From IMG/VR virus record IMGVR_UViG_3300000096_000017: DNA of 8,463 nt, one strand, 5' to 3'. This document shows positions 1,717 to 8,463 of the stretch, piece after piece. The notes beneath the pieces are model-generated. The model ran no database searches and was not told the DNA's origin. It saw nothing but the letters and a program-made list of their open reading frames with translations. This stretch comes from a virus. Taxonomy: Duplodnaviria > Heunggongvirae > Uroviricota > Caudoviricetes. Both the position numbers and the translations under genes were made by a program. How positions within the stretch are numbered: the first letter of the stretch is position 1; the number at the start of each line of letters is the position of its first letter.

Positions 1717-1768
1717 TTTACTCTTCCTTAAACACAAGGCACTTGTGTGAATCCCTTTTCGGAAGAGA

Positions 1769-1796
1769 TTTTATTGAAAGTCACTTGTTGACTTTC
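1769..1796 (-). promoter_or_regulatory. Candidate late-type promoter for the structural gene: 8-bp inverted repeat plus -10 hexamer
   Basis: Perfect inverted repeat GAAAGTCA (1776-1783) / TGACTTTC (1789-1796) with a 5-bp spacer. On the minus strand a TAAAAT hexamer (plus 1769-1774) lies about 14 bp downstream of the palindrome centre, roughly 25-45 nt upstream of the candidate start codons. P1 late promoters are described as a -10 element plus an upstream inverted repeat bound by the late activator; the exact consensus is not recalled. Confidence 0.35.
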
Positions 1797-2959: not shown

Positions 2960-4156
2960 TCAGTTAGATCTGATAAATTCAATACGGTCAAAAACTGCTT
3001 TAGCAAAATCTTCCGCAGCAATTCGCGCGTTCTTCAATGCATCAGCACTACCAACATACGTTGCCGGGTTAGCTGAAATAACAGTGTCAAAAGACTCGCC
3101 GCAGCGTTCAAAACCGTCAAGGCGAGGGAGGACAACATCAAGCATATCCCCACCGAACACTTCTTTAGCCAGGCTATGGCAATACTTATGGTCTGCCTTG
3201 TTACTCAACTTGGACATAAAACCAATGTTAGTTGCAAGCTGACACTCGCAGCCTTCATCCGAAATGAGTTTCACCAACTCAGGAAGGCGGGCAACGTATT
3301 TAAGCGATGAGTGGAAATCAACCGTTGCAGGCGGCAGAGGTGTAAACAGTATATTGGCCGAGGCCAAAGCATTTTTCAGGAAGGCGTCAAGGTGAGGACC
3401 ACTATCAACGAGGATAAAGTCATAATCGCTCTTCAGCTTATCAATCACATTTTCTTTCAGGACTGCATGGATGTTCTGACCCGGTAGATGCTCATTGCAC
3501 AGCTCTCTCCAATCGGATGCAATAAAGGCATCGTCAATCGACGCAGGCATAACGTCAACCCCAGGTACAACAGAAGGAACAATAAACTCCTCTAACAGCT
3601 CTTCACGGCTTACATTCTGCAACATAGCCTGTGCAGATGTTGCGTTTACGATACCAATAGAGTGTTTATGGCTTAAAAACATCGTTGCTGAAGATTGCGG
3701 ATCAAGGTCAATAACCAGAATCCTTAAATCTTCCATCAGAAGATGAGGATGAGCACGCATTGCATGCGCCAGAGAAACCGTCGATACAGTTTTTGACACA
3801 CCGCCTTTAAGATTGGAGATGAAAATCACATACGCTTCGCTGTAGCGATCCCGGTATTTTGGCACTCCGCGATGTTCATATATGTCAATGATGTTCTGAA
3901 TTGACATCGCATATTTCATTGAAGAGCCAGCAGGGCGTTTATCGAAAACATAACCCTTTTCTTCCATTTCACTTACGGCATAGTCAACGTTCGCACGAGT
4001 CAGTAGAGGCAATTTTGCCAGTGCCGCTTTCGCATAGACCTGGTAAAACTCGTTCGCGTGTAGCTCATCCTTTTGCAACTGTACTTGTTCAGTCAGAACA
4101 TTGAGCATTCTATTTGCTCTTTGAGCAACCTTGTGAAGCTGGCTGGAATCACTCAT
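2960..4156 (-). CDS. parA: ParA partition ATPase, 398 aa, type Ia with N-terminal DNA-binding extension
   Basis: ATG at 4156 preceded by AGGA at 9-nt spacing. Deviant Walker A motif KGGVSKT within NLKGGVSKTVST, and a ~100-aa N-terminal extension typical of autoregulatory type Ia ParA. Translation (MSDSSQLHKVAQRANRML...) matches my recollection of P1 ParA. Confidence 0.95.
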   Translation of the reverse strand: MSDSSQLHKVAQRANRMLNVLTEQVQLQKDELHANEFYQVYAKAALAKLPLLTRANVDYAVSEMEEKGYVFDKRPAGSSMKYAMSIQNIIDIYEHRGVPKYRDRYSEAYVIFISNLKGGVSKTVSTVSLAHAMRAHPHLLMEDLRILVIDLDPQSSATMFLSHKHSIGIVNATSAQAMLQNVSREELLEEFIVPSVVPGVDVMPASIDDAFIASDWRELCNEHLPGQNIHAVLKENVIDKLKSDYDFILVDSGPHLDAFLKNALASANILFTPLPPATVDFHSSLKYVARLPELVKLISDEGCECQLATNIGFMSKLSNKADHKYCHSLAKEVFGGDMLDVVLPRLDGFERCGESFDTVISANPATYVGSADALKNARIAAEDFAKAVFDRIEFIRSN

Positions 4157-4324: not shown

Positions 4325-5134
4325 TTATTTGCTAAGAGCAGCGAATAATCGTTCGAAATCGATAGTATCTATAGCACGCGTAAGCGCCGGAAGTTCAGCC
4401 TCAAAGTACCCGTGTCGATCGTAAAAGAAGGGACCGAAGAGCGAGGCATGTTGGATTCTACTTCGCCCCAGCCCGGACACACAGTTAAGCCCATTACCGG
4501 CTAAAAGGCTAAAAAACTTCTCTGGATTATCGTGGTAAAGCTGGGAATCAATGGTGGCGGTTAACTCTTCCATAGGGAAGCACACCCGCCCTGTATCCCA
4601 GGGATATTTAGTCCGAAGCATAAACATTGCTTTCAGCAATTCACATTGAGCGCGGATCGCGTCCGGTTCATAGCCAGATATGGAGACATAAGCCACGTCC
4701 CTCATTCCTGCGTCATCTTTGAAAGTCACGATAGAAGTAACATCCAGCTCTTTTTCGAAAGAGCAAGCAGCATCTACTGGACGCTGAAGTAAATCATTCG
4801 ACTTAATGCGCTCGAGAATCCCTCCCCACATATCATTTAGATATTCGATATGAGCCAAAACCTTATCAAGACACTCTCGTGTAAACCATTCAGTATGCCC
4901 GCCACCGGCGCTTTTCTCCCACGGCGCATTCCAGGGGAAAAAGGTTGCGTGTAAAGCCCGCTCAAGATTAACCATTGCCAAACGCGTACCACGATAGACC
5001 CGTGAAAGCGCAAAATCGGGACTCACTTGTAGCCCTTTAAACCGTGCCAATGGACCACATGAAATGCCGATTTTAAAAGTATCTCCGTTCTCTGGCACCA
5101 GAACGTAGAGGTAGTGTTGTTTCTCTTCTTGCAT
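4325..5134 (-). CDS. Standalone 269-aa protein with GIY-YIG-like (T5orf172/MUG113-type) N-terminal domain and uncharacterised C-terminal domain
   Basis: ATG at 5134, TAA at 4325-4327, own terminator downstream. Residues 8-25 YLYVLVPENGDTFKIGIS fit the GIY-x(9-11)-YIG spacing, followed by a conserved-position Arg (GPLAR), LERALHATF and GGGHTEWF, matching the pattern I recall for T5orf172-type domains. The C-terminal ~170 aa have no motif I recognise. Weak ribosome-binding site. Confidence 0.75.
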   Translation of the reverse strand: MQEEKQHYLYVLVPENGDTFKIGISCGPLARFKGLQVSPDFALSRVYRGTRLAMVNLERALHATFFPWNAPWEKSAGGGHTEWFTRECLDKVLAHIEYLNDMWGGILERIKSNDLLQRPVDAACSFEKELDVTSIVTFKDDAGMRDVAYVSISGYEPDAIRAQCELLKAMFMLRTKYPWDTGRVCFPMEELTATIDSQLYHDNPEKFFSLLAGNGLNCVSGLGRSRIQHASLFGPFFYDRHGYFEAELPALTRAIDTIDFERLFAALSK

Positions 5135-5167
5135 ATCAATACCACTGCTTGATGAGAACCGCGCAAA

Positions 5168-5425
5168 TGTTGACTATGCGCGAAGGTTAATGTGAATAGT
5201 TGACTATGCGCGATGTGACTACAGTCAAAAGTTGACTGTAGTCGATTTAACTCCACCAAAGATCGACTATGTAAGATATTGTCGGGAGAAACGTTGACTA
5301 TACGCGATGAAATGCCCCTAAAAGCCATCTCAATAGCGACTTGCAGAATATTGACGCCAGCAAAAATCCACCAGCGTCAACGAATGTCGCCTATAGTCAA
5401 CTTCTCGCTATCGCATATAGTCAAT
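5168..5425. repeat. incA-like iteron array downstream of repA, about 9-10 copies in both orientations
   Basis: Core AGTCAA/TTGACT with flanks matching the origin iterons. Reverse-orientation copies at 5168-5183, 5198-5214, 5231-5243, 5293-5308 (perfect reverse complement of an origin iteron) and degenerate 5263-5275, 5348-5360. Forward copies at 5217-5228, 5388-5401, 5410-5425 and degenerate 5372-5385. Confidence 0.8.
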
Positions 5426-5426
5426 A

Positions 5427-6311
5427 TTATGGATTGCGCTTATGGATCTGGAAGCCGATTTTCCTGCCGTTTTTTATCTCTGAAAATTTAAGATATTCAA
5501 TAGCTTCCAAATCTTTCATGGCTTTTCTGATAACGCTATTTTGCACGCTAACGGATGATTTGAGATTAAGCCTCGCTCTAAGGCGCTCAATGCTGACAGG
5601 TGCCGGGTTGGCGGGTAGAGCCTCAAAGAATGTATACAGTACCTTGGCCGTCTCTTTGCGCCCTAGTTTATCCAGCATCTTCAGCTTCAGGATTCGCTTA
5701 TAGTCAACATAGTAAAGTTCAGATAGCTGTTTCTGCGGCTGGATCTCGATAACATCAAGCTCGGTATTCAGGCTGCTATATGCCAACAAGTTGACGTTAA
5801 TGTTATTGAGATGACCTTTTGCCGCCGGGAAGCGGAATTTGACAACTGTCTGCTGAATGCGTGTCAGAGAGTCATCAATACTTTTACGGAACGCCTTTGA
5901 AAGGCGCTTACGTGGATAGCCGCATCGATCGGCAAACTCGGAGAATGGCAGGGTGATTATGCCGTCATCATCAGGTGCGTAGTCAAACAACGCGGAGGTT
6001 ATGCCCACCCACACCTTAAAATCAGTATCCATATCCAGGCGTGGACCATGAATTTCAATTCCCTCATAGCCTTCCTGCTCAACAATTTTGAGGCTTGATA
6101 GTTCTTCAGTTGCGTTCGTTGTGTTTGTTGTAACTGACGATCCGCGACGTAGCGCCACATTGGTAGATTTTAAGGTTGGCACAAACACACCTAAGCGCAA
6201 CAAAGCGATGGGTTGTATAGTGCTGTTGTTATTGGGCTTCAGGCTGTGGATTTCTCCTGTATTTCCTGCAACTTCTTCAACGCTAAGGAAGCCTTTACTT
6301 TCTTCCGGCAT
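5427..6311 (-). CDS. repA: Iteron-binding replication initiator RepA, P1 RepA family
   Basis: Track ORF 5427..6347 starts at TTG; an in-frame ATG at 6311 is preceded by GGAG at 8-nt spacing (GTG at 6314 also possible), giving ~294 aa. Motif-by-motif similarity to P1 RepA as I recall it (QPIALLRLGVFVP, GPRLDMDTDFKVW, YTFFEALPANPAPVSIERLRARL, C-terminal HKRNP) but clearly diverged. Flanked on both sides by iterons. Confidence 0.9.
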   Translation of the reverse strand: MPEESKGFLSVEEVAGNTGEIHSLKPNNNSTIQPIALLRLGVFVPTLKSTNVALRRGSSVTTNTTNATEELSSLKIVEQEGYEGIEIHGPRLDMDTDFKVWVGITSALFDYAPDDDGIITLPFSEFADRCGYPRKRLSKAFRKSIDDSLTRIQQTVVKFRFPAAKGHLNNINVNLLAYSSLNTELDVIEIQPQKQLSELYYVDYKRILKLKMLDKLGRKETAKVLYTFFEALPANPAPVSIERLRARLNLKSSVSVQNSVIRKAMKDLEAIEYLKFSEIKNGRKIGFQIHKRNP

Positions 6312-6359
6312 CACGGTTTCTCCATGTGTGGCGCGGCCTGACGTCAATTTGGATGGCTG

Positions 6360-6603
6360 TTATCAACAGCTGTGAATATTCAGACTCTAAAATCGCTTAC
6401 AGTCAATGTTTCTGTCGCGTATAGTCAACAATAAATCGCGTGCAGTCAACAATAAATCGTGCACAGTCAACATAAAATCGCGTATAGTCAATGTTGATCC
6501 CATTTCAGGCCAGTAATGACGCGGCTTACAGCGATCCGGGATCTTCTTTGGATCTTCCTAGGTTCTCTTTAGGATCTGTTTATTGGATCTATGCTGTGGA
6601 TAA
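6360..6603. other. Vegetative plasmid origin (oriR-like): DnaA boxes, GATC cluster and iterons
   Basis: Perfect DnaA box TGTGGATAA at 6595-6603; six GATC sites at 6496, 6533, 6540, 6551, 6573 and 6586, several in a GGATCT context; the five iterons; and an 8/9 DnaA-like box TTATCAACA at 6360-6368 between iterons and repA. Same module order as P1 oriR. Confidence 0.7.
6392..6493. repeat. Origin iterons: five direct repeats of ~17-19 bp at 21-bp spacing
   Basis: Copies at 6392-6408, 6415-6430, 6435-6451, 6456-6472 and 6477-6493, consensus approximately ATCGCGTRYAGTCAAYR, all in the same orientation. AGTCAA cores start at 6401, 6423, 6444, 6465 and 6486. Confidence 0.85.
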
Positions 6604-6611
6604 GTTGAATA

Positions 6612-6632
6612 AACCGGCCAACAAAGCCGGTT
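6612..6632 (-). terminator. Possible intrinsic terminator for the upstream minus-strand operon
   Basis: Stem AACCGGC (6612-6618), 7-nt loop, stem GCCGGTT (6626-6632), 15 bp downstream of the 130-aa gene stop. On the minus strand it is followed by a T-rich but interrupted tract (TATTCAACTTAT), so it is weak. Confidence 0.35.
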
Positions 6633-6646
6633 GGAAGGAAGTCATA

Positions 6647-7039
6647 TTATTCTACGCTTTCGATAAGAAGACCATGTTCATAACATTTAAGCTCATCGCC
6701 TTCATACAGGAATTGGTATCCAACACCACCATCTTCATGGACATTAGGGAATAACTCATAACTCACTGAAGAGCAAATCACACCAATGCAGCGATCAACT
6801 CCTTCTCGTTCTTCAGTGCTGAAAAAATCCTCTTCGGTAAGAACATGAGTACATTGCTCATCAGCATAGGTCGGAAATACATGCTCGATACAATCCGGAT
6901 GTTTTAAACCAAGTTGATCGGCAAGTTCGAAAGCATGACGGTATTGTTCAGATCCTGGCTTGCCAACAGTGATGTGCTCAATTTTGTAGATTGAAGTCGC
7001 TTTGTTGATAGTTTGCTTAACTGTTACTTTATCAGACAA
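6647..7039 (-). CDS. Hypothetical acidic Cys-containing protein, 130 aa
   Basis: ORF with TTG start at 7039 (no in-frame ATG or GTG anywhere), preceded by AAGGG and beginning 10 nt after the lipoprotein gene stop (TAA 7049-7051), suggesting translational coupling. No motif recognised. Confidence 0.6.
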   Translation of the reverse strand: MSDKVTVKQTINKATSIYKIEHITVGKPGSEQYRHAFELADQLGLKHPDCIEHVFPTYADEQCTHVLTEEDFFSTEEREGVDRCIGVICSSVSYELFPNVHEDGGVGYQFLYEGDELKCYEHGLLIESVE

Positions 7040-7048
7040 AAATCCCTT

Positions 7049-7381
7049 TTAGTTACCGCTGATAGCGCGGTTGTAATCATTAACGTTGCGATTCTTCCTG
7101 TTAATCCCCATCAGCATCGTTTCTGTATCGAGGATATACGCTGGCAGATCATCAAAATATTCACTGCTAAACTCCGGCATCCTGCACATAAATGCACTTT
7201 TGGGGTCAGAGTGCTTAACCTTTGTCGGCGTCGGCGTTAAATTCGCTGATCGACTCCCGGAGCAACCGCTGAGTGTCAGCAGGAATACGCTGGCGAACAT
7301 TACCCGCCGCAACCAGTTGTTTCTGAACTTCAGCTTTTCGTTCCATTTGCCTGTCAGCATACTTGGCTTGTTCTGATTCAT
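7049..7381 (-). CDS. Outer-membrane lipoprotein, 110-aa precursor; candidate o-spanin
   Basis: ATG at 7381 preceded by AGGAAG at 6-nt spacing. Basic N-region, hydrophobic stretch VMFASVFLLTL, lipobox LSGC with Ser at +2 (outer-membrane sorting rule), then a Pro/Thr-rich mature region (TPTPT) with one further Cys. Overlaps the 3' end of the preceding gene in a different frame (7215-7381). Alternative internal ATGs at 7360 and 7300. Confidence 0.7.
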   Translation of the reverse strand: MNQNKPSMLTGKWNEKLKFRNNWLRRVMFASVFLLTLSGCSGSRSANLTPTPTKVKHSDPKSAFMCRMPEFSSEYFDDLPAYILDTETMLMGINRKNRNVNDYNRAISGN

Positions 7382-7637
7382 TTTTCACTTCCTGGCTGTG
7401 AAAATGTTGCTCTGCTTTGTTCATCGTCTCAATGGTCTGGTTAAGATCCATTATTGACTTATCACGTTCCTTAACAGCCTGATCAAGACTGCCAATTTTC
7501 TCCATGGCTTGCTTTAGCAGATGACGTTCCCATGCAAACCCAGCACCAACAAGTGCGCAAATCAGAACAAGAACACCAGTAGCAGCAAGTTTCTCCTTCA
7601 AAGACAAAGCTGTTTTTAACGTAGAAAAGAATGACAT
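7215..7637 (-). CDS. Membrane protein with N-terminal transmembrane segment and coiled-coil-like domain, 140 aa; candidate i-spanin
   Basis: Track ORF starts at TTG 7664, but an in-frame ATG at 7637 is preceded by AGGAGG at 5-nt spacing. One hydrophobic segment (ATGVLVLICALVGAGFAW) followed by a K/E/Q-rich helical region. Its last 167 nt overlap the lipoprotein gene. Confidence 0.7.
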   Translation of the reverse strand: MSFFSTLKTALSLKEKLAATGVLVLICALVGAGFAWERHLLKQAMEKIGSLDQAVKERDKSIMDLNQTIETMNKAEQHFHSQEVKNESEQAKYADRQMERKAEVQKQLVAAGNVRQRIPADTQRLLRESISEFNADADKG

Positions 7638-7676
7638 GTCTTCCTCCTGAAGAAAAATTATCAATGAAGTCCTTTG

Positions 7677-8339
7677 TTACCGTGCCGCTTTGTTTAATTC
7701 ATCAAGAACAGAATCAGGAACCAAAGCGGCGACTGCGCTGGCTGTACTGGCCTTATTTGCTGATGCTTCCGCAAGCGCGGTACCGATAGCATGGTTATAA
7801 GCAGTTATGGCTACGTTGGCGCTTTCCTTCACCCGTTCATACTGCTGTTGCAATGCAACTGTGGGCGCTGTTGTCTGGTTGAAAACAACCCCAAACTGTT
7901 CAGTTGCTACTTTCAGAGATTCAATTTGCTCTTCTGTTAGTGCTGGTGGGGGAGTGGCAGTGCCACCGCCAGAACCAGAGCCTGACGAGCTTCCTGAGCC
8001 AGTGTTAAGGGTCTGGTTAATCTCCCCCATAGCAGCGACTAAACTTGATGTATTAAGCGCGTTTACAGCGTCCTCAAGCGATTTAGTAATAGTCACATCA
8101 CCAATGGCAATAGAGATCGGCAGTTCTGATACTTCTCGCTCATTAGCATGGCAGTAAACATCCCAACCAATATCGAGTTGAAGCAGCATTGACAGATCTG
8201 CATAACCAGCCAACAGGTCCGCGTGCTTAGTTGCCAGTTCTACAATGTTCGTTAAGCCGGTTGTGGTTGTTCTGATCGTTGAAACATAGCTGGTAATAGT
8301 GTCGGGATAGACAATTGTATCCAGAATTAATCCGGTCAA
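7677..8339 (-). CDS. Hypothetical two-domain protein with Gly/Ser-rich linker, 220 aa from the track start
   Basis: Open frame ending at TAA 7677-7679, 39 nt upstream of the next gene. Start is uncertain: the frame is open from 8447, the first start-like codon is TTG at 8339 with no ribosome-binding site, and the first ATG is codon 51. Central linker NTGSGSSSGSGSGGGTATPPP. Confidence 0.6.
   Translation of the reverse strand: MTGLILDTIVYPDTITSYVSTIRTTTTGLTNIVELATKHADLLAGYADLSMLLQLDIGWDVYCHANEREVSELPISIAIGDVTITKSLEDAVNALNTSSLVAAMGEINQTLNTGSGSSSGSGSGGGTATPPPALTEEQIESLKVATEQFGVVFNQTTAPTVALQQQYERVKESANVAITAYNHAIGTALAEASANKASTASAVAALVPDSVLDELNKAAR
7807..8157 (+). other. Plus-strand 116-aa ORF antisense to the 220-aa gene, probably non-coding shadow ORF
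   Basis: Lies entirely inside the minus-strand 220-aa ORF; its translation is low-complexity (the antisense of the Gly/Ser linker reads as PPPEPEPDELPEP). Listed only for completeness. Confidence 0.1.
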
Positions 8340-8374
8340 TTCTTCTGCAAGCAGTTTTGGGTGATGCTGCCAAC

Positions 8375-8463
8375 TTACTGATTTAGTGTATGATGGTGTT
8401 TTTGAGGTGCTCCAGTGGCTTCTGTTTCTATCAGCTGTCCCTCCTGTTCAGCTACTGACGGGG
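8375..8463 (-). CDS. 3' end of an upstream minus-strand gene (partial, start beyond window)
   Basis: A different minus-strand frame is open from the window edge to TAA at 8375-8377 (…PSVAEQEGQLIETEATGAPQKHHHTLNQ*). Only 29 codons are visible, so this is weakly supported. Confidence 0.3.
   Translation of the reverse strand, partial: PSVAEQEGQLIETEATGAPQKHHHTLNQ

Follow-up and report, generated by a model that had tools for sequence, protein, structure and literature searches.

Overlapping ppfA and mlp genes beside the replicon of a P1-like phage-plasmid very probably encode its two-component spanin

Two overlapping genes, ppfA and mlp, are encoded on the minus strand of an 8,463-nucleotide (nt) stretch of viral DNA (IMG/VR record IMGVR_UViG_3300000096_000017), which was analysed at its full length and is called the window below. 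The first gene, ppfA, occupies positions 7215–7637, starts with ATG and encodes a protein of 140 amino acids (aa). The second gene, mlp (7049–7381), also starts with ATG and encodes a protein of 110 aa. An earlier sequence-only reading of the window had pointed out this pair of open reading frames (ORFs) as spanin-like; its span of 7049–7637 is exact, and the strand, which was left unstated, is minus. What that reading missed is the P1-like identity of the window, and hence the prior literature on the pair. Megablast analysis assigns the window to a P1-like phage-plasmid, with several records named 'phage P1' matching 99% of its length at 98–99% identity and hundreds of E. coli plasmids also providing matches. 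Reference P1 itself covers just 72% of the window in this analysis, owing to the different replicon region. The pair itself exhibits 98% DNA identity with ppfA (gp064) and mlp (gp063) of P1, the PpfA product being 98.6% identical (two substitutions) and the Mlp product 97.3% identical (three substitutions, all just outside the overlap); none of the substitutions relative to reference P1 falls inside the overlap. These are directly recognizable as the same genes, with Shine-Dalgarno sites, overlap and the neighbours upfB and upfA in common. The pair is very probably the two-component spanin of this P1-like phage-plasmid, composed of the orthologues of P1 ppfA, encoding the inner-membrane component (i-spanin), and P1 mlp, encoding the outer-membrane component (o-spanin).

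All features of the two genes described here are located on the minus strand, and conservation was assessed across nine loci that span approximately 60% protein identity. Seven of these loci, with PpfA 58–63% identical, are divergent: one is Cronobacter phage JK004, and the other six are P1-like loci of metagenomic or genomic origin. The ppfA gene is preceded by the Shine-Dalgarno sequence AGGAGG (7643–7648), located 5 nt before the ATG and present in 9/9 loci. The gene product features a single strongly hydrophobic stretch, aa 17–35 (LAATGVLVLICALVGAGFA; 7533–7589), which is the top Kyte-Doolittle window with a mean of 2.35 and is the predicted transmembrane segment. Three Lys and one Glu precede this segment, so an N-in orientation is predicted, and PpfA is predicted to be a type II inner-membrane protein with one N-terminal transmembrane segment. 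The region that follows (aa 37–82; 7392–7529) is a predicted periplasmic coiled-coil stalk, in which hydrophobic residues reach 69% at heptad positions a/d versus 9% elsewhere, an enrichment matched in 6 of 5000 shuffles. No significant heptad signal was obtained for aa 83–110, the second half of the stalk. The AlphaFold model of PpfA, of modest confidence (mean predicted local distance difference test score of 69), consists of a helix at residues 13–110 that comprises the transmembrane segment and the stalk, a break at residues 111–119 corresponding to a Gly/Pro-containing hinge, and a second helix at residues 120–137. This C-terminal helix (7227–7280) lies within the overlap with mlp, and no other part of PpfA is as conserved; it includes invariant alignment columns, and its region exhibits 79% identity to the divergent clade versus 52% for aa 1–85. 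The periplasmic part of PpfA contains no Cys.

Read in the +1 frame relative to ppfA, the mlp gene starts within it and ends 166 nt after the ppfA stop, producing a dual-coding overlap of 167 nt (7215–7381). Its Shine-Dalgarno sequence, AGGAAG (7388–7393), is located 6 nt before the ATG, within ppfA codons Q82-E83-V84. The 110-aa precursor would be processed to a mature part of 71 aa. The predicted signal peptide (aa 1–39; 7265–7381) is composed of a long basic n-region (aa 1–26, with seven Lys/Arg residues) and then a hydrophobic core, and leads into an L-S-G-C lipobox (aa 37–40; 7262–7273) in which Cys40 is the predicted lipidation site. The +2 residue is Ser, which is associated with outer-membrane sorting, and the +3 residue is Gly; the Cys40-Ser41-Gly42 triplet is invariant in the nine loci. 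Mlp is therefore taken to be a predicted outer-membrane lipoprotein precursor and the predicted o-spanin. The Cys66 codon (7184–7186), found within the invariant motif AFMCRMPE, specifies the only Cys that the two proteins would place in the periplasm, where it might form an intermolecular disulfide.

The anatomy proposed in the sequence-only reading is largely upheld by these results, including the single N-terminal transmembrane segment of the 140-aa protein, the coiled-coil-like domain, for which support extends over aa 37–82, and the overlapping lipoprotein gene in another frame with its LSGC lipobox, Ser at +2 and extra Cys. Its description of the mature lipoprotein as Pro-rich was overstated, with five Pro found among the 71 mature Mlp residues, four of them in the first 31. 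Both ribosome-binding sites had been called strong, but that of mlp, AGGAAG, is a moderate site in this lineage, and AGGAGG is the form of the divergent clade.

The +1 frame with its lipobox is intact in 9/9 loci. Nucleotide diversity was computed by region for ppfA codon positions 1/2/3, with ppfA position 1 corresponding to mlp position 3. The part coding for ppfA only shows values of 0.19/0.17/0.41, indicating selection in the ppfA frame, and the part of the overlap coding for Mlp aa 1–23 shows 0.15/0.12/0.43, indicating constraint in the ppfA frame alone. In the part of the overlap coding for Mlp aa 24–55 all positions are constrained (0.12/0.08/0.17), the diversity at the third ppfA position dropping from 0.41–0.43 to 0.17. 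The part coding for mlp only shows 0.40/0.13/0.09 by ppfA position, which corresponds to 0.13/0.09/0.40 for mlp positions 1/2/3. Dual-coding selection is observed directly in this pattern, and both ppfA and mlp are therefore genuine genes. The constraint on Mlp starts at the hydrophobic core of the signal peptide, from approximately residue 24.

The start of the long form of mlp, consisting of a Shine-Dalgarno sequence (AGGAAG or AGGAGG) and an ATG, is present in 9/9 loci. In all seven divergent loci the Shine-Dalgarno sequence is AGGAGG and the ATG is positioned one codon further downstream, and this displacement of the start between the two clades argues for selection for a start at this place. 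The n-region exhibits 26% identity across clades, yet it is always basic, with 7–8 Lys/Arg and 0–1 acidic residues in the loci where these are countable. The conserved form of Mlp appears to be the long precursor, with an n-region that is seemingly free to vary while it stays basic. Two shorter forms were considered as the main product and rejected: Met28 of P1 Mlp is not conserved, and a start at residue 23/24 has no Shine-Dalgarno sequence and is missing in two loci, the codon being TTG in P1 and, at 7312, in the window, ATG in 5/7 divergent loci and AGG in the other two. The extension is always present and basic, with an upstream Shine-Dalgarno sequence and ATG, though its sequence is unconstrained, and these properties are the basis for considering it a regulatory device rather than an annotation artefact, a proposal that we regard as unlikely. 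If it were correct, two Mlp isoforms or slowed export could tune the timing or the amount of o-spanin reaching the outer membrane, in a loose parallel with the dual-start motif of holins.

Automatic annotation of most P1-like records replaces mlp with an ORF of 45–52 aa that has no signal peptide or lipobox, or calls nothing at all. Replacement ORFs are found at 10049–10189 in locus L002, 5458–5592 in L003, 4431–4589 in L010, 4449–4589 in both L012 and L013, and 3049–3186 in L014. As a result of these mis-calls, the o-spanin is systematically missed or mis-started in P1-like records.

BLASTP analysis of Mlp showed homology to LysC of phage P2 (37% identity over 68 residues, E=5e-8), and hhalign comparison of the Mlp profile with P2 LysC provided a probability of 86.5% (E=4.6e-6). 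Each of the two alignments takes in the signal core and the lipobox Cys as well as a TPTP stretch and the second Cys. Mlp and LysC also match each other's PHROGs weakly and reciprocally, and these comparisons support Mlp as a distant homolog of P2 LysC. The best PHROG of Mlp is phrog_30284, annotated 'Rz-like spanin' (E=2e-76), which is a P1-specific family. For PpfA, the best PHROG is phrog_89, likewise annotated 'Rz-like spanin' (E=6e-25), in which P2 LysB too has its best match (E=6e-61). The PpfA family is narrow: an exhaustive profile search of 1.84 billion representatives identified 33 matches, mostly fragments. Three distant full-length metagenomic relatives of PpfA match several spanin PHROGs. 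A word-indexed protein search provided matches in the P1-like clade alone, and a scan of one genome per species identified three near-identical loci that added no new diversity.

Among the known systems close to the pair is P2 LysB/LysC, which has the same architecture, with an o-spanin frame (+1) that opens within the i-spanin gene and ends after it. The two P2 proteins are 141 and 96 aa long, versus 140 and 110 aa for PpfA and Mlp; the alignable region of Mlp and LysC, which includes the TPTP-like stretch, covers approximately 65 residues, and PpfA and LysB have their best PHROG in common. Mlp carries a 26-residue basic extension before the signal core that P2 LysC does not have, and the P2 genes follow Y, K and lysA in a lysis cassette, in contrast to the unlinked P1-type pair. 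The PpfA/Mlp pair appears to work like P2 LysB/LysC and to be distantly related to it, yet it forms a family of its own. Rz/Rz1 of phage lambda is the spanin prototype, and no other spanin has been studied in mechanistic detail. It resembles PpfA/Mlp in combining a type II inner-membrane protein that has a helical periplasmic domain with a small outer-membrane lipoprotein in the +1 frame, and in being encoded by late genes. The lambda Rz1 gene is fully embedded in Rz, whereas mlp overlaps ppfA, and lambda Rz has periplasmic cysteines, unlike PpfA. No sequence homology between the lambda and P1-type pairs was detectable, with hhalign and BLASTP comparisons not significant and no match of PpfA or Mlp to the Pfam families Phage_lysis or Rz1. 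PseT.3/PseT.2 of phage T4 is a separated two-component spanin, the genes of which do not overlap. The lysis genes of T4 are scattered, and T4 therefore provides a precedent for a spanin pair located away from the holin and endolysin genes.

The class criteria for an overlapped two-component spanin were taken from Summer 2007 and Kongari 2018. Examined against these, the i-spanin of the pair has a single predicted N-terminal transmembrane segment and a helical or coiled-coil domain in two parts joined by a linker, as indicated by AlphaFold and the heptad pattern. The o-spanin has an outer-membrane lipoprotein signal without Asp at +2, is encoded in another frame from a start within the i-spanin gene to beyond the stop of that gene and, with Cys66, supplies the minimum of at least one periplasmic Cys for a disulfide. 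Expression together with the late and lysis genes is found for the operon in P1vir, an element other than the IS1-interrupted one in the window.

The pair is already known, being the catalogued spanin of P1. Table S1 of Kongari et al. 2018 lists P1 (NC_005856.1) as 'ovl', with gp064 as the overlapped i-spanin and gp063 as the overlapped o-spanin, and gives the same Shine-Dalgarno sites and a LipoP cleavage after residue 39. In that table the transmembrane domain of the P1 i-spanin is scored TRUE and its single Cys is placed inside this domain, and the periplasmic Cys count is one for the o-spanin and zero for the i-spanin. The two proteins are placed in 'P1' families of their own, and the o-spanin carries the comment 'Too long signal sequence; LipoP cleavage at 39'. 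Bednarek et al. 2022 (PMC9025707) describe the P1 spanin genes ppfA and mlp as partially overlapping and as located in another, unlinked operon. The proposal in the sequence-only reading of an overlapped spanin of the P2 lysB/lysC type outside a lysis cassette agrees with these specialist assignments, and it is further supported by the Mlp–LysC homology and the phrog_89 match of PpfA. The introduction of PMC9025707 swaps the two names, calling the ppfA product an o-spanin and the mlp product an i-spanin; these labels are reversed, because the transmembrane segment is found in ppfA and the lipobox in mlp. The curated P1 record annotates ppfA with 'possible periplasmic function' and mlp as 'membrane lipoprotein precursor', 'possibly involved in regulation of lysis (by homology)'. 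The labels Rz-like spanin or Rz/Rz1 are already in use for the pair in RefSeq and in several GenBank records. The finding is ordinary for a P1-like element and is already explained.

Expression values for the operon were obtained from Table S1 of a published P1vir RNA-seq study, which covers 10 and 30 min after infection. The genes upfC, upfB, ppfA, mlp and upfA rise from 4.1–5.6 at 10 min to 10.5–11.2 at 30 min. The 27 genes for structure and lysis, lyz and lydA/B among them, rise from a mean of 4.35 to a mean of 11.2 over the same interval, and a mean of 8.6 at 10 min is found for 18 genes of the early or maintenance type, such as repA, parA/B and uhr-hrdC-dmt. The upfC–upfA operon is late in P1vir, unlike the adjacent repA and parAB genes, and these kinetics fit a lysis role and argue against a prophage-expressed envelope function. 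An Lpa-type late-promoter scan modelled on the P1 late promoter LP23 recovers LP23 perfectly and, upstream of upfC, finds just a degenerate box.

The upfC region lies outside the window. Approximately 35–40 nt upstream of upfC there is a late-promoter-like element with LP23 geometry, composed of AAGTAACCT, 4 nt and TAAAAT, which is found at about 11309 in locus L006 and at about 12040–12060 in L001, in both cases on the minus strand. This box exhibits one mismatch to LP23 in pPSJ-07_1 and three in P1, and is not conserved in the approximately 60% clade. The annotated LP23 itself (AAGTGACTT tcaa TAAAAT) is perfectly kept upstream of gene 23 in the window (1768–1786, minus strand), and likewise in Cronobacter phage JK004.

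The mechanism is drawn by analogy with lambda Rz/Rz1, from which we infer the membrane topology, lipidation, complex formation and membrane fusion of PpfA and Mlp. Late in the lytic cycle, the upfC-upfB-ppfA-mlp-upfA operon would be transcribed. PpfA would enter the inner membrane through its N-terminal transmembrane helix, extending its helical coiled-coil stalk into the periplasm, while Mlp would be exported, lipidated at Cys40 and sorted by the Lol pathway to the outer membrane owing to the Ser at +2. The C-terminal parts of the two proteins would then bind each other, probably as dimers formed through a disulfide at Mlp Cys66, and the complexes would span the periplasm through the peptidoglycan mesh. 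Once the signal-arrest-release (SAR) endolysin Lyz had destroyed the peptidoglycan, the complexes would be free to move and collapse. Collapsed complexes would fuse the inner and outer membranes, removing the last barrier to release.

Several observations weigh against assigning the pair to the spanins. According to Bednarek et al. 2022 (PMC9025707), who cite Summer et al. 2007, P1 ppfA and mlp were recognized as spanin genes by their predicted features, without experimental verification. The signal peptide of Mlp is atypically long. P1 PpfA itself may be contained within the phrog_89 profile, which would inflate the score of the match. PpfA scored 17.8 bits (E=0.003) with the curated LysB equivalog TIGR03495 of NCBIfam, for which the cut-off is 92.75, and a Pfam scan of both proteins provided no match to Rz (PF03245), Rz1 (PF06085) or LysC (PF23793). 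That scan gave sub-threshold coiled-coil noise and a generic lipoprotein attachment site, and nothing else; Mlp has no match to PF23793 at E<=1, while LysC itself scores 64.9 bits (6e-18). Comparison by hhalign of the PpfA profile with the single P2 LysB and lambda Rz sequences gave probabilities of 1–2%, which are not significant, and direct comparison of PpfA with the single LysB or Rz sequences was not significant either, so that the PHROG profile is the one link between PpfA and LysB. The location in a lysis cassette that is usual, though not obligatory, for spanin genes is not seen here, and no holin or endolysin gene adjoins the pair. In a CRISPR interference (CRISPRi) screen, knock-down scored both genes as non-essential for plaques, with efficiencies of plating (EOP) of 0.24 and 0.19 for mlp and of 1.3 and 1.2 for ppfA. 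This plaque assay is a weak test for lysis genes, because in the same screen the EOP of the endolysin gene lyz fell no further than 0.05 and the holin gene lydA and lambda R were scored non-essential. Finally, IS1 cuts the operon upstream of the pair in this element and parts it from whatever promoter precedes upfC, so the late expression seen in P1vir may not hold here.

The left end of IS1 occupies positions 8360–8463 on the plus strand, as determined by alignment to an annotated IS1 end. From 8360 it removes approximately the first 35 codons of upfB, leaving a 3' remnant of this gene (7677–8359, minus strand) and parting ppfA and mlp from the upstream region of the operon. The exact junction at 8360 was not found in one piece in PLSDB, and several near-identical plasmids carry IS1 approximately 225 bp further upstream. 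The arrangement at 8360 may have come about through an IS1-adjacent deletion or an independent insertion.

Three other explanations of the pair were considered. According to the first, PpfA and Mlp regulate the timing of lysis without disrupting the outer membrane, which is the older view of P2 lysB/lysC and was adopted for Mlp in the P1 annotation. The 'regulation of lysis' remark on mlp in the P1 record agrees with this, as do the P2 record, in which lysB/lysC are 'nonessential; affects timing of lysis', and the unusual complexity of the P1 lysis system, which has several holin-like proteins. However, the field now takes the timing phenotype of Rz/Rz1-type genes as the loss of the last step of lysis, and the predicted anatomy of a transmembrane stalk and an outer-membrane lipoprotein with a conserved Cys is that of a periplasm-spanning complex, so a purely regulatory pair is very unlikely. 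Equally to be weighed is an envelope-modifying or superinfection-exclusion module, expressed from the prophage as part of a maintenance region and protecting the lysogen in the manner of lambda Bor or Cor-type lipoproteins, which had also been offered as the alternative in the sequence-only reading. The pair lies between the replicon and an early operon and outside a lysis cassette, the P1 record predicts sigma-70 promoters inside upfB, and knock-down barely affects plaque formation, all of which would suit such a module. These points are countered by the late kinetics of the operon in P1vir, clearly unlike those of repA and parAB, by the homology of Mlp to the o-spanin LysC, and by the PHROG matches, since among annotated PHROGs PpfA and its distant relatives match spanin families alone. 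No PADLOC-DB family was matched at E<=0.01 by PpfA, Mlp, UpfA, UpfB or the GIY-YIG protein encoded in the window, and a sigma-70 scan identified no promoter-like minus-strand site between IS1 and ppfA, the total number of sites not exceeding that in shuffles. The exclusion or envelope alternative thus found no support, and we consider it highly improbable. The third explanation takes mlp for an open frame that spans the ppfA end by chance, with a short downstream ORF or nothing expressed. It has in its favour the annotation of MH422554, JK004 and most divergent loci with just a 45–52 aa ORF after ppfA (two divergent loci having none) and the lack of amino-acid constraint on the first 23 Mlp codons, but it is excluded by the codon-position analysis, given the coding pattern in the mlp frame downstream of ppfA and the double constraint on the overlap from Mlp aa 24. 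Also against it are the invariant lipobox within that overlap, the long-form Shine-Dalgarno sequence and ATG kept in every locus despite their one-codon shift between clades, and the absence of any signal sequence from the short ORFs, and it has next to no probability.

The two-component spanin lies beside the plasmid replicon, as the sequence-only reading had noted: only upfA and a terminator-like hairpin part the pair from the origin iterons at 6388–6512. The upfA gene (6647–7039, minus strand) is the last gene of the operon, an ORF of unknown function that belongs to phrog_1453, itself of unknown function. Its start is TTG here versus ATG in P1, owing to a 2-nt deletion (7037–7048), and the frame is otherwise intact. 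Directly after the upfA stop, the hairpin CCAACCGGCTTTGTTGG is followed by a T-rich tail (6618–6634, minus strand), and it probably ends the upfC–upfA operon ahead of the iterons. The neighbours of the pair are upfB, upfA and the plasmid replicon, an arrangement that is known for P1 and kept in the approximately 60% clade. The order upfC-upfB-ppfA-mlp-(upfA)-repA-parA-parB is conserved in these relatives, so the position next to the replicon is ancestral to the group and no local accident.

The remaining genes of the window are also encoded on the minus strand and comprise gp23, the major capsid protein gene (10–1737), parB (1942–2943), parA (2960–4156), an ORF of 269 aa for a GIY-YIG / T5orf172-type nuclease (4325–5134) and repA (5427–6347). 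Unlike P1, the element has a different replicon, with other iterons and another RepA, as well as the GIY-YIG gene between parA and repA and the IS1 in upfB. Iterons of the TCGCGTATAGTCAAC type, at a spacing of 21 bp, are found upstream of repA, and further copies of this type, in both orientations, are found downstream of repA (5164–5425 and 6388–6512). The GIY-YIG ORF is situated between parA and the iterons downstream of repA and is absent from reference P1. Annotations of the ORF are found in many P1-like plasmids, and one divergent locus (L014) contains a counterpart; the product of the window ORF provided no NCBIfam or PADLOC match.

As a discovery the pair carries little weight, and P1 is already known for the odd placement of these genes apart from its other lysis genes. 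The spanin assignment of ppfA and mlp nevertheless stays a prediction in a model phage that is among the most widely used, and to this the comparative data add that the long start of the o-spanin, which the spanin census marked as 'too long', is the one that is conserved. The mis-calling of mlp keeps the o-spanin out of sight in surveys of phage-plasmids bearing resistance genes.

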